A stretch of 32,000 nucleotides of DNA, taken from contig CP025011.1 in the NCBI GenBank assembly GCA_002952755.1, forward strand, positions 1,200,001 to 1,232,000. The letters run 5' to 3'. The notes beneath the pieces were generated by a model that ran no database searches, had not been told where the DNA came from, and saw only the letters and a program-made list of their open reading frames with translations. Origin of the DNA: Candidatus Saccharimonadota bacterium. GTDB lineage: Bacteria > Patescibacteriota > Saccharimonadia > Saccharimonadales > UBA4665. The position numbers were made by a program, and so were the translations under genes. Below are positions 1-27,226 of the stretch, in pieces. Position 1 is the stretch's first letter; every line of letters begins with the position of its first letter.

Positions 1-139
1 ACAGTGCTCATCGTGTAATACTTACCTTTCGAGGTCTTAACGTAGGAATTACATACATAAGAGATAGGGCCCTAGAGGCCACTCTTTTGTCCAAACCCTT
101 ACTCTGTCTTGACTCTCAGCATGCCCATATCAGTTCTAA

Positions 140-832
140 TTATACCCGAAGATAGGTTTGCAGCATAGAGTACATCAGAGGTGCGAGCTCGCTGGTCAAT
201 TGGCTACTCCCCTGCACTTGCGCCATAACCTTAGCAGGGTGCGATGCAAAACTCAGACGAAGATATTTGATATGTGTAGGCCTAAAACGACCACGATCGT
301 CTATCTGGAAGCACATGTCGTCAAAACTAAAGGCATAGGTATGGTCAGACGCAAGCCGTCTACCGTCTATGTCTGTTTCGAGATTGGGCGCATGGCCGCT
401 CAAGTGTAGCAATTGTGCCGCAAACCAAAAACGAATAATCTCCGTCGATACGGTTCTATCGTCGAGCGCTTCAAAAGCAGAGCGTAATACAGTGAAGTAC
501 TCCCGCTCGGGCTCGTCCTCTGTTACGCGATGTAATTGTTTGATCAGATCATAGCCTGCCATTGTGCGGTCTAAATCGGTAACGATCGTACCATAGTGAG
601 TAACGAGCCTGGTGGATACGAGCGTACCAAGGTCGCTCTTGCCTTTTACATAGGTGATGATGCTCACACTAAATAGCTCAATACCGCCAGCCAGCTTGGA
701 TTTGACACGACGTACACCCTTAGCCATTAGGCGTATTTTGCCTAACTCTGGCGTGAGTAGCGTAATGATACGATCGGCCTCACCATAATCGGTTCTGGCT
801 AGAATAATAGCTTCGGTAACGAGCTGGTTCAT
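140..832 (-). CDS. recO: DNA repair protein RecO
   Basis: In ORF 140..847, the N-terminal OB-fold-like segment EAIILARTDYGEADRIITLLTPELGKIRLMAKG and overall length fit RecO. The ATG at 832..830 forms an ATGA overlap with the TGA stop (831..829) of the upstream ORF, so I prefer 832 over the GTG at 847. Confidence 0.85.
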   Translation of the reverse strand: MNQLVTEAIILARTDYGEADRIITLLTPELGKIRLMAKGVRRVKSKLAGGIELFSVSIITYVKGKSDLGTLVSTRLVTHYGTIVTDLDRTMAGYDLIKQLHRVTEDEPEREYFTVLRSAFEALDDRTVSTEIIRFWFAAQLLHLSGHAPNLETDIDGRRLASDHTYAFSFDDMCFQIDDRGRFRPTHIKYLRLSFASHPAKVMAQVQGSSQLTSELAPLMYSMLQTYLRV

Positions 833-1212
833 ATGCCGCTCGTACACTCGCGGATCAATCGAACAAGGTCCAGCAAGGTGGTGCGCGGTTTATAGCAAAC
901 AGCCACCACTCCCAGGTCAGCGTGCAAAATACTCTCGATATCGGCCAGTATGAGCGGTGGTATGGTTGTGTTCACGACTACTGGAATGCTTGCCCATTCC
1001 GGATATGAGCGAAATTCGTGCAAAAATTCGACTCCATTATGGGCAGGGAGCTGTAGCTCCATGAGCAGAATATCTGGCATACGCCTATCGGCCGCATCGA
1101 CTGCTGCCTGCCCCCCGGCGACATGCACCACGTGGTGGCCGACATGGGCGAAGGCCCGTGTATACGTTGCCGCCAACAAGGTGTTAGGTTCTATCAATAA
1201 TATATTTGACAT
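829..1212 (-). CDS. Atypical single-domain receiver (CheY-like fold) with Glu at the phospho-acceptor position
   Basis: It aligns by eye to the canonical receiver at 8642..9052. PDILLMELQLP matches PDLVLLDVMMP, giving Asp to Glu. The N-terminal LLIEPN replaces LFVEDD, so the acidic pair is incomplete. The conserved Thr (VVVNTT) and Lys-Pro (CYKP) are retained. Confidence 0.75.
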   Translation of the reverse strand: MSNILLIEPNTLLAATYTRAFAHVGHHVVHVAGGQAAVDAADRRMPDILLMELQLPAHNGVEFLHEFRSYPEWASIPVVVNTTIPPLILADIESILHADLGVVAVCYKPRTTLLDLVRLIRECTSGI

Positions 1213-1223
1213 GAGTACAAAAT

Positions 1224-1949
1224 TTATACAAATTGTAATTGCCTGCTCGGTTGCAGCGTAGCTGCCAGGCCTTGTTCGTGCTGGTACCGACCGACACGCA
1301 AGCGGCTGTTCATTGAGCGAAAAATGGCATCGGCAACAAATAAGCCTGCCGCGCTACCCGTGCCAATAGCCGTAAGCGGCTGTCTGGCCTTGCCGGCGAG
1401 GTCTAGCGCAGTACGCCACCGATCCGCTCTTAGCTCCTCGTATTCACCATACATGCCGGCAACGAGGCCGTGTGGTGTCCGATGAAAGCCAAGCGTGACA
1501 TGCCGTGGCCGACGCTCCGGCCTAGATGCTTCAGCTTCGACAAGACTAAAGCCCAGCGAAAGTAACGCCGCCTTTAACCCGCGCTGATGACTCATGACCG
1601 GCCCATAGCGTCCACCCACTCGTAGCTCCAATTCGACGCCATAATACTGCGCAAAACGACTCAGCTCATGCGCTACATCAACCAGCAGCGAAGATACAGA
1701 AACCGGCTCCATGACCAGTTCGACTTGTTCACTCCATAGCTGCAGACCAAGCAGATAGCTATCGACAAGCGTTAACGCGGCAGCGGCCTGGGTGCCGATC
1801 GCCCCCACGTCCGTCATTCGGAGATCGCCAGTGAGTTGGCCGAGCTCGGCCTGCCGAGCGATGGTCGTGAGCGGTACTTTGAGTTGCTCGGCAATGGAGA
1901 GTAGCAAATCATCAGAGCCCACGCGGACCGGATCATCCCCTATTGCCAT
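1224..1949 (-). CDS. Degenerate cytoplasmic histidine-kinase-like protein (DHp plus HATPase_c-like) lacking the H-box His
   Basis: SIAEQLKVPLTTI matches the H-box consensus SHELRTPLTSI with His replaced by Glu. The downstream layout EPVSVSSLL...GVELEL...LKAALLSLGFSLVEA...GTGSAAGLFVADAI follows HATPase_c order, but the N-box Asn and G1 box are not recognisable. There is no TM segment. A GAGGG SD lies 7 nt upstream of the ATG. Confidence 0.65.
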   Translation of the reverse strand: MAIGDDPVRVGSDDLLLSIAEQLKVPLTTIARQAELGQLTGDLRMTDVGAIGTQAAAALTLVDSYLLGLQLWSEQVELVMEPVSVSSLLVDVAHELSRFAQYYGVELELRVGGRYGPVMSHQRGLKAALLSLGFSLVEAEASRPERRPRHVTLGFHRTPHGLVAGMYGEYEELRADRWRTALDLAGKARQPLTAIGTGSAAGLFVADAIFRSMNSRLRVGRYQHEQGLAATLQPSRQLQFV

Positions 1950-1985
1950 CTACTCGCCCTCTCTTAGTTCTCTCTTCATACTAAC

Positions 1986-2010
1986 ACACGCGGTCCGTTC
2001 ACCCGCGTGT
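1986..2010 (-). terminator. Possible weak hairpin terminator between 2056..2724 and the HK-like gene
   Basis: An 8-bp GC-rich stem (acacgcgg / ccgcgtgt) has a 9-nt loop. On the minus-strand RNA only a U-poor tail (guuaguaug) follows. Confidence 0.3.
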
Positions 2011-2055
2011 AAAAAGCTCTCCGGGATAGGAACAATTACTGAGATCAACCAAGCC

Positions 2056-2724
2056 TTAGGGCGAGAAGGTTAAATTCGGTAGAATCGTGTTATTAAAGTC
2101 GGGCAAAAAATCTGTCGATTCGGTCGATATTTCGAGTGTCACATTACGCAGCGGCAAGATAATAATACTTCCCTGCTTGCTCGTGGTTAACTGACCGTCA
2201 AATCTCGTACCAATCACGCTGGGAACTTTGGGCAGGCTATACGGTGCTGCGCTCAATTTCTTGGACTGCACAAAACTGGAGTAACCGGCAATCGCGCTGC
2301 TATAAGAACTAGATACTATCGACAAACGGAGCGAAAAAGCGCTATTGCCATTTATATCTGGCACATAATCGGGGTGGAAGTATGAATTGAGTGGCGTTTG
2401 AGAGTTGTCGTTAATAACATACGCACTCCACGTCTTGGGATACTGCAATGTGACACTTCCGTAAGCCTCAGGGCCGACATACGTTTTCAACGGACTTTTT
2501 GCGGCCTCGGCATATTTTACTGCGTCGCTCGACTGCGTACTTTGAACGGCCACAGAAGCTGCTACCGCTGCCTTTTTATCACTATGATTTTTATAGTCCT
2601 GGCGGCTATTAAAGGCCCAGGCACCAAAACTAAGGGCGGCTATCAGAAAAACGACGGTTGCAATGAGAGAAAGAAGCAGGACATTTATAAATCCGCGCTC
2701 GCTACGTACCTTCATACTGCTCAT
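2056..2724 (-). CDS. Membrane-anchored extracytoplasmic protein of unknown function
   Basis: This is ORF 2056..2751. Position 2751 is a TTG, and the first ATG is at 2724 (MSSMKVRSERGF...). It has one N-terminal TM helix (INVLLLSLIATVVFLIAALSFGAWAF) followed by a Ser/Tyr-rich soluble domain. I recognised no catalytic motif. Confidence 0.6.
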   Translation of the reverse strand: MSSMKVRSERGFINVLLLSLIATVVFLIAALSFGAWAFNSRQDYKNHSDKKAAVAASVAVQSTQSSDAVKYAEAAKSPLKTYVGPEAYGSVTLQYPKTWSAYVINDNSQTPLNSYFHPDYVPDINGNSAFSLRLSIVSSSYSSAIAGYSSFVQSKKLSAAPYSLPKVPSVIGTRFDGQLTTSKQGSIIILPLRNVTLEISTESTDFLPDFNNTILPNLTFSP

Positions 2725-2766
2725 GGTAGCGAAATTCAGGCGCTGGCGCAACCCGGGAGAGCTTCC

Positions 2767-3255
2767 CTAATGATATTCATACAAAAATACTCCGTACGAC
2801 TCGGCAACACGTTTCTTCCCAGGAATCGTAAACGCAACGCTGGCCAGCCGGACTGGTCGAGTATGCCACTCCTCTATCCGGGCATCTAGCTTACCCATCT
2901 GGCGTCCAATCATAAAAGCAAAAACTGCGTCAGCTGGTGGCCACTGCACGGTAAAATAGTTGCCCCAAACAATGGTAACGTGCTTACGGTAGCGACGCGT
3001 TCGAAGCCACGAAATGAACGCCAGCAATGGACTTAGTTCAATGCCTACCACATGCACGCCTTGCTTCGCGGCGGCTATCAGCATACGACCATCGCCAGAA
3101 CCCAGTTCAAGGAGAGTCTCCCCGGGGCGCAAGTCTAATAAGTCGAGCGCGGCTTGCATGTTGCCACGTAGCGTCGGTAGGTAGGGAGGCCCAAAAAATA
3201 CCGTAAAGGCGGTCAGAAGCAACACTATGCCTACCAAGAGAAACACCAGTGACAT
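2767..3255 (-). CDS. Membrane-anchored class I SAM-dependent methyltransferase
   Basis: It has an N-terminal TM helix followed by SAM motif I LELGSGDGRMLIAAAKQG and an acidic motif II (VGIELS). An AAGGAA SD lies 7 nt upstream of the ATG. Confidence 0.75.
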   Translation of the reverse strand: MSLVFLLVGIVLLLTAFTVFFGPPYLPTLRGNMQAALDLLDLRPGETLLELGSGDGRMLIAAAKQGVHVVGIELSPLLAFISWLRTRRYRKHVTIVWGNYFTVQWPPADAVFAFMIGRQMGKLDARIEEWHTRPVRLASVAFTIPGKKRVAESYGVFLYEYH

Positions 3256-3259
3256 TATT

Positions 3260-3466
3260 CTATTCCTTGCCAGACGTTTTGAGTTTTAGCTGCGAGATCC
3301 TATTTTCGGCCTGGTTCAGCGTTTCTTCAAGCTGGTCAACTACCAGCAATCCCTGCTCATAAAGCGTCACCGCCTCATCGACGTGGATATCAGGCCGTTG
3401 CAAGGCTGCAAGTATCTCATCAAGTCGAGTGCTGAGGCTCAGATAATCCTTTTTCATGTTAGGCAT
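3260..3466 (-). CDS. xseB: Exodeoxyribonuclease VII small subunit
   Basis: The 68-aa helical protein (LDEILAALQRPDIHVDEAVTLYEQGLLVVDQLEETLNQAENRI) is typical of XseB and lies immediately downstream of xseA. Confidence 0.9.
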   Translation of the reverse strand: MPNMKKDYLSLSTRLDEILAALQRPDIHVDEAVTLYEQGLLVVDQLEETLNQAENRISQLKLKTSGKE

Positions 3467-3478
3467 GCTACTCTACTC

Positions 3479-4597
3479 CTATTTGATTCTAACATCGGTT
3501 ACGCGCGCATCGACTGCGCCATCAACAAAATCCACTGTTATGACGTCGCCAACTATGAGATCACGCGACTGCATAATGACGCCCTCCTTATGTATAAGCG
3601 CATAGCCACGTTGCAGTACGCTTTCAGGGTCAAAAGCACGAAGCAATTGTCGTTTTACAGTCAGTTGATGCCGGGTATGCACTGCCGCTCTTTCAGCCAT
3701 ATCGAATAAAACCGAACGCGCACCCACTAGGCCCTGCTTGGCATTCTCTAGTATCTGGAAGGTTCTCCGTGCCAGTTGCGTGCGATAGGTGGATAGACCA
3801 GCTACCAACGCCTTTCGGTCCGGTACTAAGAGCTCAGCCGCATTACTCGGCGTGCTAGCGCGAACATCGGCTGCTAGTTCGCTGAGACTTATATCTATCT
3901 CGTGGCCAATCGCAACCAACGTGGGAATACGACTTGCCGCAACCGCGCGCGTCACCTGCTCTGTGCTAAAGGTCTGCAAATCCTCAGGACTGCCTCCGCC
4001 GCGCGTGATAACAAGCACTTCGGGCGGCAAAGGCAACTGATTGCATTGCTCAATTGCAGTCACAATCTGCGCCGGAGCTGAGTCGCCCTGTACTTGCACA
4101 TCGATGTGTATAATCTCAAGGCCGCCCCACCTCGCATTGATAACCTTGCAAAAATCATGATACGCCGCCGATTCCGCCGAGGCGATCAGACCAATCGATG
4201 CAGGCGGATATGGCAATGCCCGCTTACGGTCAGAGTCAAACAAACCTTCAGCTGCCAACTTCGTCTCAAGTAGCGCTGCCGCCTTCTTAATAGACCCTTC
4301 CCCCACTGGCTGTATGCTCAAGATATTCAGACTAAAGCCGTACTGATTATGCAGCCTCGGTGTCGCTCTGACCGCAAGGAGCATGCCATCCTGCAGCGGG
4401 CCGGGTAACTGATAAACCGTTCCAAAGCATCGCACCACTGCTTCGTCGTCTTTTACATCAAAATATACCCAACGATTCTTACTAACCTTAAAATTCACAA
4501 GCTCACCTGTGACTGTAACGTTTGAATACGCATATTCCAGCGTCTGATTCACGTACGCCACAAACTCACTGACGCCGAATGCGAGGTCGCTGCTCAT
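3479..4597 (-). CDS. xseA: Exodeoxyribonuclease VII large subunit
   Basis: It has an N-terminal OB fold (VTVTGELVNFKVSKNRWVYFDVKDDEAVVRC) and a catalytic core (LVITRGGGSPEDL, SAIGHEID-like VAIGHEIDISL). Its ATG forms an ATGA overlap with the upstream stop at 4594..4597. Confidence 0.92.
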   Translation of the reverse strand: MSSDLAFGVSEFVAYVNQTLEYAYSNVTVTGELVNFKVSKNRWVYFDVKDDEAVVRCFGTVYQLPGPLQDGMLLAVRATPRLHNQYGFSLNILSIQPVGEGSIKKAAALLETKLAAEGLFDSDRKRALPYPPASIGLIASAESAAYHDFCKVINARWGGLEIIHIDVQVQGDSAPAQIVTAIEQCNQLPLPPEVLVITRGGGSPEDLQTFSTEQVTRAVAASRIPTLVAIGHEIDISLSELAADVRASTPSNAAELLVPDRKALVAGLSTYRTQLARRTFQILENAKQGLVGARSVLFDMAERAAVHTRHQLTVKRQLLRAFDPESVLQRGYALIHKEGVIMQSRDLIVGDVITVDFVDGAVDARVTDVRIK

Positions 4598-5637
4598 GGT
4601 GACTCAGGCCTACGCAGTGTTCGATGATACAGCACATATCCTGGCGGGATCTGGATGAGCGTGTTCAGCACTCTATACATCACCGTTACCGGTAAACTGA
4701 GAGCCGCGGGGATGCCAGATGCTGCTAACACACCGGTCATCAGTGCCTCGTAAATACCGATCCCACCCGGCAAAACTGATACAAAACCCGCGAAATTAGC
4801 TACCGCGTACGCTAGAATAATTGAACCGACATTCACCCACTTGCCAAAGGCAATGTACACAACGTATACCGTAAATATCTCTGTTATATTAGCGGCGACA
4901 GACCATACAAATGGCCACTTTAGCTCTTTATAGTTTGCTTCAATAAGCTTGTAATTCCCGTGGAACTCCTGCACCAACCGCTCTGCACGTTCAATGCTGA
5001 TTGTCTCCGGATAGTGCGGTCGAAAGATATGGATCACCCGATTTAAGAAGGCTGTAATAGCTGAAAACGTGGCGTGGATGCGTCTCTTCGAACCCATAAT
5101 AAATACAAACGCAAAGGTACCAATTACCAGGACGGTAGAGACCGACCCAGCGACCAACACCACTAGACTATTCGTCCGGCCCCCGATGGCCATAAACACC
5201 AAACCGATTATCAACAAAATTTCGAACGACACAATGACTAAGATAAGCTTCATTAGCTGTACCAACGTAGCCTTGCCGCCGCTGATATCGCCTCTACGCA
5301 TCCGCACTCCGAAATATGAGATACCGCTCACTCCCCCACTTGGAAAAACATGATTTACAAAATTCAGCTCCAGTGCCGCCCTAAGAACAAAACTATAGGT
5401 AAGTTCGTTGCCGACCAGCCGAAAAAGTGTTTGATAAATACGTGTTTGCGCATGGTAATTTGCGACCTGTAGCGGGATCATCAGGGCTAAAATCCAAATG
5501 TTTACTTTGGCCAGATTATTAAAAGTGTCGATAATCTGCTGGCGTATAGCAAAAATAAGTATAAGTAGCGCTGCAACCGTCACTAGATTGACGATCACTT
5601 TCCAGTTTCGCTTCAAAAAACCAGACTGTTTCCCCAT
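4594..5637 (-). CDS. Polytopic membrane protein, UPF0104 / lysyl-phosphatidylglycerol-synthase-TM-region-like (flippase-like)
   Basis: This is ORF 4594..5658 (TTG at 5658), with about 8 predicted TM helices. In-frame ATGs occur at 5643 and 5637. A TATAAT at 5647..5652 on the minus strand sits 9 nt upstream of the 5637 ATG, so I prefer 5637. The family call rests on general architecture only. Confidence 0.6.
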   Translation of the reverse strand: MGKQSGFLKRNWKVIVNLVTVAALLILIFAIRQQIIDTFNNLAKVNIWILALMIPLQVANYHAQTRIYQTLFRLVGNELTYSFVLRAALELNFVNHVFPSGGVSGISYFGVRMRRGDISGGKATLVQLMKLILVIVSFEILLIIGLVFMAIGGRTNSLVVLVAGSVSTVLVIGTFAFVFIMGSKRRIHATFSAITAFLNRVIHIFRPHYPETISIERAERLVQEFHGNYKLIEANYKELKWPFVWSVAANITEIFTVYVVYIAFGKWVNVGSIILAYAVANFAGFVSVLPGGIGIYEALMTGVLAASGIPAALSLPVTVMYRVLNTLIQIPPGYVLYHRTLRRPESP

Positions 5638-5706
5638 ATGCATGCAATTATACGTCAAATCTCGCCTTACCTTCTAACACTCTCCGTGTATGCACCTCTT
5701 TTACGG

Positions 5707-7352: not shown

Positions 7353-8567
7353 TTAGGTACTGGGCGTAGCTGGTTTTTGAATTCTGCTTTCAACCTCTTC
7401 TAAGGTTTGCTGCATATAATATCCCTGGTCAAAGACGTGCCCTGCAAGCAAACCTGCGCCGAATGCTGTGACCGCCAAGCCCAGATTCGGATCTTGTTTA
7501 TCCTTAGCAAAACTCAGATACCCGGCTACTTGGTCATCCATGGCAGCCATTCCTTCAGGTGAGGTGTTCATATGGCCCTGCTTCAGCTGGGTAATAAAGT
7601 TAACCATCGTATCAAACACCTTTTGACTCTCAGACATGAGGTGCAACTGTCCCTCTTCAAAGACACCACGAGCTGCTATCTCTTCTATAATGCGCTTTGG
7701 ATTCGCAGTTGCGCCAGCAGCCATCAAAGCGATCACCTCTCCGGTAAGTTTCGCAGCCCTATCTTCGCTTTTAGCAGCCGTATCCAACCATCTGCCTGCC
7801 AAGATCTCAATATGCTGCTGATTTGTAGGGTCAGAGACCAAATTAACGAGGGTGTTGATGGTATTATAGATAGCATCACGGCTATCTATCCACGCCTCCT
7901 GCGCCTTCTCTTCTGCAGATGGTTCAATCCGTTCGGGCAAGGCCTTCCTTACAAGTGCTCCTGCATGTACCGCTGGCGTACTTTCAGGCAATCGTCCACT
8001 CTGTTCGACTGGATCAGCTGCAGATACAGCTGGAGTGGACAATACTTCCCAACCATGTACCCATGTCCCATTTGTTGAGGTATCTGTTATTGACAGTCCT
8101 TCATCTGTTACCTGAATCTCTACGTGCTTGCGTGAGGTAAGCCCGCCATACGACCTATCCCACAACTCTTCTGCGGCAACGGCTCGCACGCCTTCCCCAG
8201 CATCAGCTTGAGAGCCGCGACCAAGCCGTAGGACTTGACCTGGCTTAATCTCGACTGTCTTCTTTGCCGTAATCCGATTCTGCTCACTATTTAGACCACT
8301 AATGCCAAATCTAACACCTTGCGCATCGGCTACTTTAACAAGCGCTGCCCGCAAAGGAACATCCCCTTCTCCGGGTATTTGTAGCTCACCTACTATGGTG
8401 TTTTCTTGACCTTCGTTCTGATTAGGCGGATTGGTTTTTTCCGAGTCGTACAGAGGCATATTGGTCGACAAAATAATCTTGCGCCCCTCCAACATTCCCT
8501 CAAATCTTGCTAGCTCAGGAGCAGGTTGAGCGAGGTTCGCTGCATGGGCTTGAGAGACTACTTCCAT
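7353..8567 (-). CDS. FHA-domain protein with an uncharacterised alpha-helical C-terminal domain
   Basis: The FHA signature is RLGRG...TSRKHVEIQV...LSITDTSTNGTWVHG (the conserved G-R, S-R-x-H and NG residues). I recognised nothing in the ~200 C-terminal residues. Confidence 0.8.
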   Translation of the reverse strand: MEVVSQAHAANLAQPAPELARFEGMLEGRKIILSTNMPLYDSEKTNPPNQNEGQENTIVGELQIPGEGDVPLRAALVKVADAQGVRFGISGLNSEQNRITAKKTVEIKPGQVLRLGRGSQADAGEGVRAVAAEELWDRSYGGLTSRKHVEIQVTDEGLSITDTSTNGTWVHGWEVLSTPAVSAADPVEQSGRLPESTPAVHAGALVRKALPERIEPSAEEKAQEAWIDSRDAIYNTINTLVNLVSDPTNQQHIEILAGRWLDTAAKSEDRAAKLTGEVIALMAAGATANPKRIIEEIAARGVFEEGQLHLMSESQKVFDTMVNFITQLKQGHMNTSPEGMAAMDDQVAGYLSFAKDKQDPNLGLAVTAFGAGLLAGHVFDQGYYMQQTLEEVESRIQKPATPST

Positions 8568-8641: not shown

Positions 8642-9052
8642 CTAGGTTAAATGTTTCTTGATGCGATCAATGACATCGGTAATGACTACTTGTGATTTTA
8701 CCAAGTAATCGTCTACACCCAGGGCTTCGGCTCGCTTCCGATCAGCGTCTTGACTGAGCGCGGTGAGCATGATGATCTTGAGGTTGGCGGTTTCTGGTGT
8801 GTTGCGTAAGATATCTAAGACATCGAAGCCGCTCACCTTGGGCATCATGACGTCGAGTAAAACGAGGTCAGGCTTGTAGCTAATTGCAGCCGCTAAGGCG
8901 TCCTCCCCATTGGCTACCCGCCGAACGTCGAAGCCTTCAGCTTGGAGTCGGACTAGATATACACCTGCGAGGGCGTCATCGTCCTCAACAAAAAGAATAC
9001 GCTTTGGATGCAAAAGGGGTTGCGGCGTGCCCTGAAGAGCGCTATTATCCAT
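8642..9052 (-). CDS. Single-domain response regulator (CheY-like receiver), canonical
   Basis: The motifs ILFVEDDD, PDLVLLDVMMP (phospho-acceptor Asp), IIMLTA (Thr) and DDYLVKS (Lys) are all present. There is no output domain. Confidence 0.9.
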   Translation of the reverse strand: MDNSALQGTPQPLLHPKRILFVEDDDALAGVYLVRLQAEGFDVRRVANGEDALAAAISYKPDLVLLDVMMPKVSGFDVLDILRNTPETANLKIIMLTALSQDADRKRAEALGVDDYLVKSQVVITDVIDRIKKHLT

Positions 9053-9075: not shown

Positions 9076-10677
9076 CTACTTTTGCAACAAGCTAGCTATA
9101 AAGCCGCGGAACATAGGATGCGCACGGTTTGGCCGCGATTTGAATTCAGGATGAAATTGACTAGCCACAAAGAACGGATGATTTGTAGCCTCAATAATTT
9201 CTACCAAATTACCATCCGGGCTCAAGCCGGCCGGCCGGATGCCCCAAGATTCGTACTGATCCCGATACTCGTTATTACACTCATAGCGGTGGCGGTGGCG
9301 TTCGATGATAGCCGTAGTACCATATAGTTTAGCCACACTACTGCCCGCCTGGATCTTACAAGGGTAATCACCAAGGCGCATCGTGCCGCCAGTATTCTCC
9401 TTGCCTGCCTGTCCGGCCATCGTACTAATTACGAGGTGTTTACTTTTAGGGCTAAGCTCCTCAGTTGTTGCGCCAGTTACGCCAGCATTACGGGCCGCAG
9501 CGATAACGCCCATCTGTAGCCCTAAACAAATGCCGAGGTAGGGCACTTTATGCTCAAGGGCATACTGCGCAGCGGCAATCTTGCCTTCCAGACCGCGCGT
9601 ACCAAACCCGCCGGGCACCACTATTCCATCTATGCCTTTAAGAACCGAGGCGACATCCTCGGCTTTCTCGATAGATTCAGCGTCAATCCATTCGATAGCA
9701 ATATCAGCGTCATTAGCCCAGGCTCCAGCGCGAAGCGCCTCAAATACCGACATGTATGTATCCTGGTTGTCGAGATACTTAGCTACGACGCCTACGGTGA
9801 TTTGGTGTTTATGTTTCCCTAGGGCGTGATTCACCATCCTAGCCCAATCGGATAAATCCGGTTGCTTCGTGGTGAGGCCCAGTTGCTTGCAAATGACGTT
9901 GGCAATACCCGTCTCTTCGAGCGTCAAAGGCACCTGGTAAATGCTGGGCGCATTCGGTAGTAATGCGATAGCCTCCTCAGCTACACCACTAAAAAGACTA
10001 AGCTTAGCCTTAGCTCCCGGATTGGTCGGCTCTTCGCTACGTCCTACAAGAATGTTCGGACTAATACCAAGGCCGCGTAAGTCGCGTACAGCGTTCTGAG
10101 CCGGCTTGGTCTTAGTCTCCTTGCTCGCTCCCAGGTATGGCAAATAAACCACATGGACATACAGGCAGTTTTCTAGTCCAACGCGCATACCCAGCTCGCG
10201 AATGGCTTCAATAAAACTCTGACTTTCAATATCCCCTACTGTGCCACCGATCTCAACAATGTGCACATCGAAGCCAGCGCCAGCATCTTGGATAAATTTT
10301 TGGATCGCAGCAGTTAAGTGAGGTACAATCTGGACATCCTCACCCTGATACTTCCCGGCCCGTTCGTCTTCAATCACACGTAAAAAAACGCGCCCGTTCA
10401 TCAGAGAACTGGCGCTGGTTAATTCTTCATCGATAAAACGCTCGTAATGACCGAGGTCGAGATCGGTTTCGGCTCCGTCCCTTGTTACAAAACATTCGCC
10501 ATGCTCGCGGGGGTTAAGGGTACCGGCATCGACATTCAGGTAGGGGTCACACTTTTGAAGGTTAACGCGGAGACCGCGGGCTTTTAGCAGATTGGCGATG
10601 GAGGCTGCGGTAATACCCTTTCCGAGTCCCGAAAGGACGCCTCCTGTCACAAAAATATATTTCGTCGCCCTTGGCAC
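9076..10677 (-). CDS. pyrG: CTP synthase
   Basis: It has the N-terminal synthetase motif KYIFVTGGVLSGLGKGI and a C-terminal glutaminase domain with LGICLGLQ and QFHPEF. It uses a GTG start with a GAGGAGG SD about 9 nt upstream. Confidence 0.97.
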   Translation of the reverse strand: MPRATKYIFVTGGVLSGLGKGITAASIANLLKARGLRVNLQKCDPYLNVDAGTLNPREHGECFVTRDGAETDLDLGHYERFIDEELTSASSLMNGRVFLRVIEDERAGKYQGEDVQIVPHLTAAIQKFIQDAGAGFDVHIVEIGGTVGDIESQSFIEAIRELGMRVGLENCLYVHVVYLPYLGASKETKTKPAQNAVRDLRGLGISPNILVGRSEEPTNPGAKAKLSLFSGVAEEAIALLPNAPSIYQVPLTLEETGIANVICKQLGLTTKQPDLSDWARMVNHALGKHKHQITVGVVAKYLDNQDTYMSVFEALRAGAWANDADIAIEWIDAESIEKAEDVASVLKGIDGIVVPGGFGTRGLEGKIAAAQYALEHKVPYLGICLGLQMGVIAAARNAGVTGATTEELSPKSKHLVISTMAGQAGKENTGGTMRLGDYPCKIQAGSSVAKLYGTTAIIERHRHRYECNNEYRDQYESWGIRPAGLSPDGNLVEIIEATNHPFFVASQFHPEFKSRPNRAHPMFRGFIASLLQK

Positions 10678-26410: not shown

Positions 26411-27226
26411 CTAACGCACTCCTGTTGCGACCTGCCATGCAACTGCGCTAGCCATAGCAAAACCGAGTAGCAGATACATCTTTTCTGTATAGACAACGTT
26501 CGTCCATTGGCCACGCCCTTTCCACCGGAAAGCGGTAGCCATAACAAACGCTCCCGAGAATATGAAGGTACTCGCATAGACTGCCCAAAGATACGCGGGC
26601 ACGTGACCACCATATGCAGCAGCAGCTACAACACTCTTTATAATAACCACCCACGGCATAACTGCGCCCACTCCAGCCAACACCGCCAGCAACTTATGCA
26701 AACCAGAGCGATTCGCACCGAGTAGCTCTACCGACAATGCAAGAAGTGAGGCCAAAAATACACTCATCCATATAAAACTAAGTGTTGTGAGATCATTCAG
26801 GCCACTCATAAGGCTAAGTGTCGTGAGTATCAGACCGCCGCCAAGACCAATCGTCAACCATCGTATCTTATTCACTCCACGCTCCAAGCTCGCCAGGTAT
26901 TTCTTTTTACCTGAAGTAGCAGCGTACATATGCCCGGCTGCAAAAATAAGCAAGAAAGCGACCGCCACGTACGACAAGCGTACATCAAATAAATGCCGCG
27001 TTGCCGTCGCGAGCACCTGGTGCTTATTGGCCGTGGTGGCAAGTTGGTCGACAGAGGGGTATCGCACTGTTATTGCTTCACTAAATTTATTGCCAACGAT
27101 TACCACACCTACGGCTTGCGCCGCTAGGAATAGCGCTGCTCTTAGATTCCATATACCTAATGTTTGTTGTTTTGCGGGCGCGACAACTGTCTCGCTCTTC
27201 TTATTCGTCGTTGCTTTTTTTGCCAT
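26411..27226 (-). CDS. Heliorhodopsin-family 7-TM protein apparently lacking the retinal-binding Lys
   Basis: It has seven TM helices. YLASLERGVNKIRWLTIGLGGG and RWKGRGQWTNVVYTEKMYLLLGFAMASAVAWQVATG align, from my memory of heliorhodopsin 48C12, to YSASLMKNQNIFRWVEYSLSSS and QYKGKGKWSNYLRGERAYIVLSLVAKSALAWQIFSG. The Schiff-base Lys position is Ala and the counterion Glu position is Thr. Confidence 0.7.
   Translation of the reverse strand: MAKKATTNKKSETVVAPAKQQTLGIWNLRAALFLAAQAVGVVIVGNKFSEAITVRYPSVDQLATTANKHQVLATATRHLFDVRLSYVAVAFLLIFAAGHMYAATSGKKKYLASLERGVNKIRWLTIGLGGGLILTTLSLMSGLNDLTTLSFIWMSVFLASLLALSVELLGANRSGLHKLLAVLAGVGAVMPWVVIIKSVVAAAAYGGHVPAYLWAVYASTFIFSGAFVMATAFRWKGRGQWTNVVYTEKMYLLLGFAMASAVAWQVATGVR

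Follow-up and report, generated by a model that had tools for sequence, protein, structure and literature searches.

The left end of a 32,000-nucleotide (nt) stretch of DNA from Candidatus Saccharimonadota bacterium (GCA_002952755.1, contig CP025011.1, positions 1,200,001..1,232,000 of the forward strand; this whole stretch is called the window below) carries two adjacent minus-strand genes that lie immediately ahead of recO (Table 1). One encodes HKL, a histidine-kinase-like protein, and the other encodes RRL, a single-domain pseudo-receiver. We propose that HKL and RRL probably constitute a lineage-specific pseudo-two-component pair of Saccharimonadales, which forms a complex independently of phosphorylation and in which the receiver is locked by a Glu residue. 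An original prediction, made from the letters of this DNA, had described the genes as a two-component-like pair with Glu at both phosphorylation sites and with translational coupling to recO.

The fold of HKL was not apparent from sequence scans. Pfam returned nothing significant for the window protein, including HisKA and HATPase_c, and the only NCBIfam matches were marginal ones to CreC/QseC over the DHp region. When Pfam was run on 33 HKL family members, weak HisKA matches were found in eight and HATPase_c matches in none. Some members also gave weak matches to Phage_Mu_Gp36 and Ribosomal_L7Ae, which we judged to be spurious helical matches. A profile search of the PDB with HKL was similarly weak (E 0.07-0.5), and therefore the fold had to come from structure prediction. 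The AlphaFold2 model, built on 33 homologues, has a predicted local distance difference test score (pLDDT) of 79 and a predicted template-modelling score (pTM) of 0.79. It contains two long helices (residues 12-40 and 48-74) followed by an alpha/beta sandwich, with a low-confidence prediction in the ATP-lid region (residues 188-194). Foldseek comparison of this model with the PDB placed HK853 at the top (E 4e-10, TM 0.67-0.71), followed by DivL, CusS, RetS, ChpT (4fmt, E 3.7e-7) and others. Judged from the model, HKL appears to be a structurally complete DHp plus CA histidine-kinase core that has no sensor, HAMP domain or membrane segment.

The sites that would support catalysis in such a core are degenerate in HKL. 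In phmmer comparisons with PDB sequences, HKL residues 14-135 aligned to the DHp and early CA regions of the hybrid kinase 6qrj and of DivL, with HKL LLSIAEQLKVPL set against LATLSHEFRTPL of 6qrj and VGNVSYELRTPL of DivL (4q20). In these comparisons Glu21 is set against the acceptor His of 6qrj and against the Tyr found at that site in DivL, and an hhalign alignment puts it on H260 of HK853. That last alignment covered 202 columns with an E-value of 5.5e-4 and a probability of only 30%, and used an HK853 sequence entered by hand. It maps HKL S131 and S135 onto the N-box residues N376 and N380 of HK853 and pairs E138 with K383; the alignment with 6qrj likewise sets S131 and S135 on the two N-box Asn residues (LLSLGFS against LLNFAGN). 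The G1 Asp is replaced by G168 (G168-E-Y-E-E against D411-N-G-I-G), a low-probability alignment that agrees with the strand order of the model. The G2 box is partly kept, with GSAAGL (family consensus GSGAGL) aligned to GTGLGL of HK853 and EnvZ; the hhalign alignment with EnvZ covered the G2 region only. At position H+4, the orthologues have Leu, Val or Met and not the Thr or Asn seen in HisKA phosphatases.

These alignments suggest that the kinase, ATP-binding and phosphatase determinants of HKL are all missing and that only the G2-like glycine loop is left. HKL would be unable to autophosphorylate because Glu replaces the acceptor His; with neither the N-box Asn residues nor the G1 Asp, it is almost certainly unable to bind ATP-Mg. 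A kinase fold, the loss of kinase function(s) and maintenance by selection make HKL a pseudo-histidine kinase according to the definition of Collins and Childers 2021, as cited in PMC12632262. The original prediction had placed Glu at the HisKA His register, noted the loss of the N and G1 boxes, and argued that the DHp plus CA order and a G2-like loop were kept. All of this was borne out: three alignments (6qrj, DivL and HK853) agree on Glu21, two (6qrj and HK853) set S131 and S135 on the N-box Asn residues, the one with HK853 puts G168 on the G1 Asp, and the model, the Foldseek match to HK853 and the GSAAGL/GTGLGL alignment account for the rest. Of the two proteins, the Pfam check proposed at the same time identified only RRL, and the register of HKL was set by the PDB alignments.

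RRL is recognized by Pfam as a Response_reg protein (PF00072) with a score of 36.9 bits against a cut-off of 30.2, and it matches PDB receivers at E 4e-7. The best PDB match is RR468 (3dge_C), the partner of HK853. The RRL segment PDILLMELQLP aligns to PDLIVLDIMMP of RR468, which places E52 on D53, and LLIEPN aligns to LLVDDS, which places E8-P9 on D9-D10. The same register is obtained with a canonical single-domain receiver encoded at 8642..9052 of the window (FVEDDD ... LLDVMMP ... MLTA ... VKS), and this comparison confirms T82 and K108-P109. The canonical receiver gene lies on the minus strand, scores 77 bits, retains its acidic pair, Asp, Thr and Lys, and is flanked by genes for an FHA-domain protein and CTP synthase (7353..8567 and 9076..10677, both minus strand). 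In the orthologue alignment the T+1 position of RRL is rarely Ala or Gly, a tendency also reported for pseudo-receivers (PMC12632262). The alignments also assign RRL to the pseudo-receivers as that review describes them, with an acidic DD1, Pro at DD2, Glu at the Asp site, and T and K kept. With Glu in the position of the acceptor Asp and Pro in that of the direct metal ligand, RRL is predicted to be refractory to phosphorylation. The Asp-to-Glu change, the incomplete acidic pocket and the retained Thr and Lys-Pro residues had each been proposed beforehand, and the alignments with RR468 and the canonical receiver agree with all three.

To follow the pair beyond the window, we fetched 80 species-level Saccharimonadales loci and annotated them by phmmer. 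Position 21 of HKL is Glu in 80/80 loci, and RRL residues E8, P9 and E52 are each present in 80/80. RRL position 82 is Thr in 50 and Ser in 28 of 78 orthologues, K108 is found in 77/77, and P109 in 73/77. HKL is a full-length, single open reading frame (ORF) in 78/80 loci, the remaining two being one contig-end cut and one internal exception. RRL is full-length in 76/79, with two contig-end cuts and one internal exception. Mean identity to the window protein, calculated over the same 60 genomes, was 54% for HKL, 50% for RRL, 57% for RecO, 60% for XseA and 49% for XseB. Both HKL and RRL are under purifying selection. The survey of orthologues, which the original prediction had called for, thus found the Glu/Glu state in every locus, a nearly universal linkage to recO and no frequent frameshifts or stops. 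With the ORFs intact and conservation resembling that of RecO and XseA, it supports the core of that prediction, namely a phosphorylation-independent pair and not random decay.

Only two internal exceptions were seen among the 80 loci. The receiver-like ORF of locus L068 (2400..2714) covers 71% of the query and is followed by a 97-nt gap before recO, and in locus L036 (4812..5729) the kinase-like ORF is longer, with a best match that covers 54%. Both could possibly be local truncations, insertions or assembly errors.

HKL belongs to a discrete and small family. A collection of 5.8 billion proteins holds 655 homologues; the matches listed are all approximately 240 amino acids long, and the named ones among them come from Saccharimonadales or from metagenome-assembled genomes (MAGs) with other taxonomic labels. 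A hidden Markov model scan of 1.84 billion cluster representatives yielded 548 HKL-family proteins, and the best 150 of 548 are all about 230-250 amino acids in length, save a few truncated entries. RRL has 131 homologues, mostly of about 127 amino acids. For a wider view of the HKL family, we sampled 144 cluster representatives with identities down to approximately 28%. Position 21 is Glu in 116 representatives, Gln in 10, Asp in 10 and His in 2, with Tyr, Arg, Ala and Leu found once each. The N-box Asn or the G1 Asp is restored in 0/144. The most invariant residues in this sample are G165, G227 and Q237 (each 144/144) and A206 (143), which are encoded at approximately 1239..1457 of the window. 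These positions lie in the pseudo-CA domain and the C-terminal tail, which has the conserved motif S-x-Q-L-x-F-V, and not in the H-box.

Three divergent family members were looked up in their genomic context: both His variants and a 28%-identical Asp variant. The next gene in each case encodes a receiver that still has the E-P ... E signature. On contigs that extend beyond the receiver gene, the gene after it is recO, overlapping by 4 bases, and one locus has a class II aminoacyl-tRNA synthetase gene after recO. The HKL-RRL-recO adjacency therefore persists at 28-32% HKL identity. Because the partner receivers of these HKL variants are still E/P/E, the double loss predates diversification of the family. 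From the residues at these positions, the E/P/E signature of RRL appears to be more rigid than the Glu of HKL.

RRL and recO share a stop/start overlap. Plus-strand positions 829..832 read TCAT, such that the RRL stop codon TGA (831..829) overlaps the recO ATG (832..830). RecO itself is identified by Pfam RecO_N (74 bits) and RecO_C (29 bits) and by the NCBIfam equivalog TIGR00613 (103 bits against a cut-off of 48.7). The mechanically called recO ORF (140..847) starts at GTG 847, and RecO_N begins at residue 6 of this GTG-started ORF. ATG 832 is the likely true start because it fits the beginning of RecO_N and gives the conserved 4-base overlap. This overlap is retained in 63/75 loci, consistent with the ATGA overlap and co-expression that had been predicted. 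As controls, we examined the LPG-synthase-like/xseA, xseA/xseB and xseB/methyltransferase junctions, which are overlapping or nearly touching in most genomes. Exact 4-base overlaps were found there in 12/66, 13/70 and 18/68 cases, respectively, making the RRL/recO overlap the most rigidly kept of the junctions measured. In the window, 4-base overlaps occur at 3 of approximately 22 same-strand junctions.

The gap between HKL and RRL is mostly between -4 and +14 nt across the loci, and the 11-nt spacer of the window is too short for RRL to have an independent promoter. A promoter would most likely lie in 1950..2055, since this is the only sizeable gap in the gene string. A scan of positions 1..3600 for promoters and terminators found nothing above shuffled sequences, and no consensus promoter was detected in this 106-nt spacer. 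The spacer contains a hairpin at approximately 1985..2011 with a 9-bp GC-rich stem (ACACGCGGG ... CCGCGUGU, minus strand) and no downstream U-run, and as a whole it folds no better than shuffles (z -1.33). The gene arrangement points to a stable co-transcribed HKL-RRL-recO unit in which RRL and RecO are probably translationally coupled. The recO link is best read as co-expression only, because equally tight packing is seen between unrelated neighbors such as xseA and the LPG-synthase-like gene. We had considered the ATGA overlap as evidence for a functional link to recO and downgraded it, since tight packing is general in these genomes.

How might two proteins without phospho-sites act together? 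In the mechanism that we favor, the long carboxylate of Glu52 would engage the retained Thr82 and Lys108, thereby holding RRL in an active-like state as a built-in phosphomimic. In many regulators a Glu at the Asp site partly mimics phosphorylation, and no other residue is commoner at that site in pseudo-receivers (PMC12632262). RRL would dock onto the DHp helices of HKL through the canonical kinase-receiver interface, as RR468 does on HK853. The resulting complex, whether constitutive or dependent on conformation, could serve as an adaptor, a scaffold or a conformational switch. Its regulation would be mainly through expression level, with abundance set by transcription. HKL, RRL and recO would be made from one transcript with RRL-RecO translational coupling, and RecO-dependent recombination is a candidate downstream output.

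In this scheme the data show which folds the two proteins adopt, that their catalytic residues are lost, that selection is purifying and that the genes form an operon, whereas HKL-RRL binding, the on-like state of RRL (the possible 'on-mimic' of the original prediction) and the output are inferred. Several observations weigh against the mechanism. Inter-protein covariation, calculated as mutual information with average product correction from 74 paired sequences and dominated by phylogeny, was no stronger for HKL-RRL than for an HKL-RecO control. The top HKL-RRL pairs fell outside the DHp domain, and the HKL-RecO control reached a higher maximum. Because distant HKL members have Gln, Asp, His, Tyr, Arg, Ala or Leu at position 21, a specific role of the Glu21 carboxylate would not extend to all of them; the family as a whole favors a carboxylate there and can dispense with it. 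Moreover, HKL conservation is strongest in the pseudo-CA domain and tail, and thus the important surface may not be the DHp domain. The mapping onto HK853 is also of low probability and was made with a hand-entered sequence, although its N-box portion was reproduced against the PDB sequence 6qrj. Finally, the tight packing of the whole gene string weakens a functional reading of the recO coupling.

We weighed other explanations against the same data. It is unlikely, though plausible enough to keep in view, that HKL and RRL are not each other's main partners and that each instead modulates canonical two-component proteins elsewhere in the genome. HKL might then be a DivL-like sensor or binder of a phosphorylated canonical receiver, such as that encoded at 8642..9052, and RRL might be an Osp-like competitive inhibitor of a real kinase. 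DivL and Osp provide precedents for such activities, and binding competitors have been hypothesized for pseudo-two-component proteins (PMC12632262). The window also has the canonical single-domain receiver with no kinase nearby. No canonical histidine kinase is visible anywhere in the 32 kb, so this receiver appears to be an orphan with which the pseudo-pair could possibly cross-talk; the same lack of a visible kinase counts against the alternative. Adjacency, short spacers and strict co-conservation down to 28% identity likewise favor a cognate relationship. Non-cognate interactions are compatible with a phosphorylation-independent HKL-RRL complex, and the two are not mutually exclusive. More doubtful is a model in which the HKL pseudo-CA domain has taken on a new role, either binding a ligand or catalyzing a non-kinase reaction, making HKL a sensor whose ligand controls the release or capture of RRL. 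Such a model would account for the location of the top conserved positions (G165, G227, Q237 and A206) in the CA-like domain and tail, and for the conservation of the H156-R157 motif and the G2-like loop GSGAGLFVA. Nevertheless, the conserved glycines may be purely structural, and confidence in the model is low at the ATP-lid region. It is improbable that RRL, held in fixed proportion with RecO through the start/stop overlap, gates the activity or localization of RecO with HKL as its docking platform, such that RecO recombination is controlled independently of phosphorylation. If that were true, a pseudo-two-component system would be steering DNA repair or uptake-recombination through protein binding in a regulator-poor lineage.

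Two further explanations have little to recommend them. Residual phosphochemistry, with H94 or H156 as the real acceptor or with acyl-phosphate formed on the Glu residues, is very improbable. H156 is His in 78/81 close orthologues and H94 in 46/81, but both lie off the acceptor register in the alignments with 6qrj and HK853, and we rejected each as an alternative phospho-acceptor. H94 had been named in the original prediction as a residue that could overturn it; it is Gln in 26/81 orthologues, and H156 gives way to other residues, chiefly Tyr, Arg or Lys, in 60/144 representatives. Throughout the family sample the Asn and Asp residues that bind ATP are also missing, and an invariant Pro stands in the place of the receiver's direct metal ligand. 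We regard it as practically untenable that the pair is a functionless, decaying relic of a former two-component system, even though both catalytic sites are gone and the kinase-like protein is missed by Pfam. The orthologue survey refutes this idea with intact genes, invariant substitutions (key residues in 80/80), conservation at the level of RecO and XseA, and synteny down to 28% identity, and a decaying pseudogene pair is excluded.

Known systems offer parallels to each protein. DivL from Caulobacter crescentus (PDB 4q20) ranks among the top matches to HKL in both sequence and structure, and it shares the DHp plus CA fold and a non-His (Tyr) acceptor position. This pseudo-kinase binds the single-domain receiver DivK instead of phosphorylating it, which reverses the usual signal flow (PMC4211667). 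DivL differs from HKL in having PAS sensor domains and a membrane anchor, and its partner DivK is a true receiver that is bound when phosphorylated, whereas RRL would be phospho-dead. PsmA from Streptomyces venezuelae has Glu in place of the H-box His (Asp, Gln, Val or Tyr in orthologues) together with degenerate ATP motifs; no autokinase activity was detected, and the protein acts as a polarisome scaffold (PMC12963549). The His-to-Glu change is therefore shared with HKL, and the spectrum of residues in PsmA orthologues resembles the E/Q/D/Y found at HKL position 21. Because PsmA is known, a His-to-Glu pseudo-kinase is not new in itself. Several features set PsmA apart from HKL: it is a large hybrid protein whose architecture includes PAS domains, a long disordered linker and a receiver with the Asp intact, it occurs only in Streptomycetaceae, and it is neither part of a two-gene pair nor linked to recO. 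HKL also resembles the phosphotransferases ChpT and Spo0B (PDB 4fmt), small soluble proteins with a DHp-like bundle and an ATP-blind CA-like domain that dock receivers. HKL has both of these elements, but Glu21 stands where those proteins have a phosphorylatable His on helix 1. ChpT and Spo0B use this His to shuttle phosphate.

Among receivers, RRL resembles the Glu-site pseudo-receivers, a group that includes plant pseudo-response regulators (PRRs), fungal Rim15p and many bacterial proteins that are recognized by PF00072 and lack the Asp (PMC12632262, PMC4395418). In pseudo-receivers Glu is the commonest replacement for Asp, DD2 is usually non-acidic, and T and K are retained in approximately 65% (PMC12632262). 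RRL is distinguished from other pseudo-receivers by its position beside a dead kinase-like partner, its invariant Pro at DD2 and its lack of an output domain. Osp from Rhodobacter sphaeroides is likewise a single-domain response regulator, and it acts by binding directly to a kinase transmitter domain (PMC9430884). Unlike RRL, Osp has no pseudo-kinase gene next to its own, and its target, CckA, is an active kinase that it inhibits. In Thermotoga maritima, HK853 matches HKL best by structure and RR468 matches RRL best by sequence, and the HK853-RR468 pair (PDB 3dge, 5uht) is the natural template for the putative complex. That pair, however, is fully active as kinase/phosphatase and receiver, with its His, Asn, Asp-x-Gly-x-Gly and Asp unaltered.

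The His is missing from approximately 0.9% of HisKA domains, and the Asp from about 2% of receiver domains (PMC12632262). According to the same review, switching in bacterial pseudo-receivers is a mystery, and only two of 20 characterized bacterial atypical regulators are not orphans. Pseudo-kinases and pseudo-receivers thus each have precedents. Our literature search found no description of a pseudo-kinase paired with a pseudo-receiver, nor of an HKL-RRL system in Saccharibacteria. What appears to be undescribed in the literature found is a two-gene cognate pair of bare core domains that has lost both phospho-sites along with the ATP site and is kept beside recO across an entire order. With both partners dead, minimal (no sensor or output) and strictly conserved in an order with reduced genomes, HKL-RRL may offer a clean natural system for studying the kinase-receiver interface without phosphotransfer. 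The analysis also gives a fold and a name to a family of hypothetical proteins undetected by Pfam, and flags a candidate regulator beside recO in Saccharibacteria.

Table 1. Features of the HKL-RRL-recO region, listed in order of transcription (window coordinates).
Feature	Coordinates	Strand	Basis
LPG-synthase-like membrane protein	4594..5658	-	
xseA	3479..4597	-	
xseB	3260..3466	-	
Class I S-adenosylmethionine (SAM) methyltransferase, membrane-anchored, 162 amino acids, N-terminal hydrophobic segment	2767..3255	-	
UP231, membrane-anchored protein with weak PsbP/Mog1-like fold, upstream neighbor of HKL	2056..2718	-	
Spacer upstream of HKL, 106 nt, with 9-bp GC hairpin	1950..2055	-	
HKL, histidine-kinase-like, 241 amino acids, predicted DHp plus degenerate CA	1224..1949	-	ORF, AlphaFold2 model, Foldseek
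Predicted HKL DHp helical hairpin, residues 12-74, with degenerate H-box A-E21-Q-L-K-V-P-L	1728..1916	-	AlphaFold2 model; alignments to 6qrj, DivL and HK853
Glu21 codon (GAG), phospho-acceptor His position	1887..1889	-	Sequence and alignments
Predicted HKL pseudo-CA domain, residues 81-234, with S131, S135, E138 and G168 substitutions; G2-like loop GSAAGLFVA kept	1248..1709	-	
HKL-RRL spacer, 11 nt	1213..1223	-	
RRL, single-domain pseudo-receiver, 127 amino acids	829..1212	-	PF00072, 36.9 bits; PDB receivers, E 4e-7
Glu8-Pro9 codons, replacing the metal-binding acidic pair DD1, DD2	1186..1191	-	
Glu52 codon (GAG), phospho-acceptor Asp position	1057..1059	-	Alignments to RR468 and the receiver at 8642..9052
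Thr82 codon, switch Thr/Ser	967..969	-	Aligned to canonical receiver Thr
Lys108-Pro109 codons, conserved Lys and next Pro	886..891	-	
ATGA overlap, RRL stop and recO start	829..832	-	Sequence; 4-base overlap in 63/75 orthologous loci
recO	140..832	-	Pfam RecO_N and RecO_C; TIGR00613

The minus-strand gene run at the left end of the window is transcribed in the order LPG-synthase-like gene, xseA, xseB, methyltransferase, UP231, HKL, RRL and recO. The portion from xseA to recO is found in the same order in essentially all of the 80 loci that reach far enough. The methyltransferase gene is conserved between xseB and UP231 in most of these loci. UP231 is a conserved hypothetical protein of Saccharimonadales with 666 homologues and is always encoded directly upstream of HKL. 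A membrane helix at its N-terminus is followed by a long helix and then by a domain with weak similarity to the PsbP/Mog1 fold (AlphaFold2 pLDDT 78; Foldseek E ~0.014, probability 0.97). We considered UP231 as the missing sensor domain, but the membrane anchor, the weak PsbP/Mog1-like fold and the near absence of a cytoplasmic part do not support that role. We found no evidence that UP231 is a member of the HKL-RRL module, and we treat it as context only.

PADLOC defense-system models gave only generic matches. A heliorhodopsin gene is present at 26411..27226 on the minus strand (Pfam PF18761, E 3.5e-37). On the far side of the pair, recO is followed by a gene for a class II aminoacyl-tRNA synthetase with an HGTP anticodon-binding domain in loci L001 (6893..8269) and L083 (3228..4586). 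The arrangement is reminiscent of the Firmicutes order era-recO-glyQS, with the pseudo-pair in the place that era would occupy. The full Saccharimonadales gene string, at 46-79% identity, was also found in MAGs labeled Bacillota, Candidatus Pristimantibacillus, Nevskiaceae and Verrucomicrobiia (L001, L004, L016 and L056), and the taxonomic labels of these four MAGs are probably wrong.

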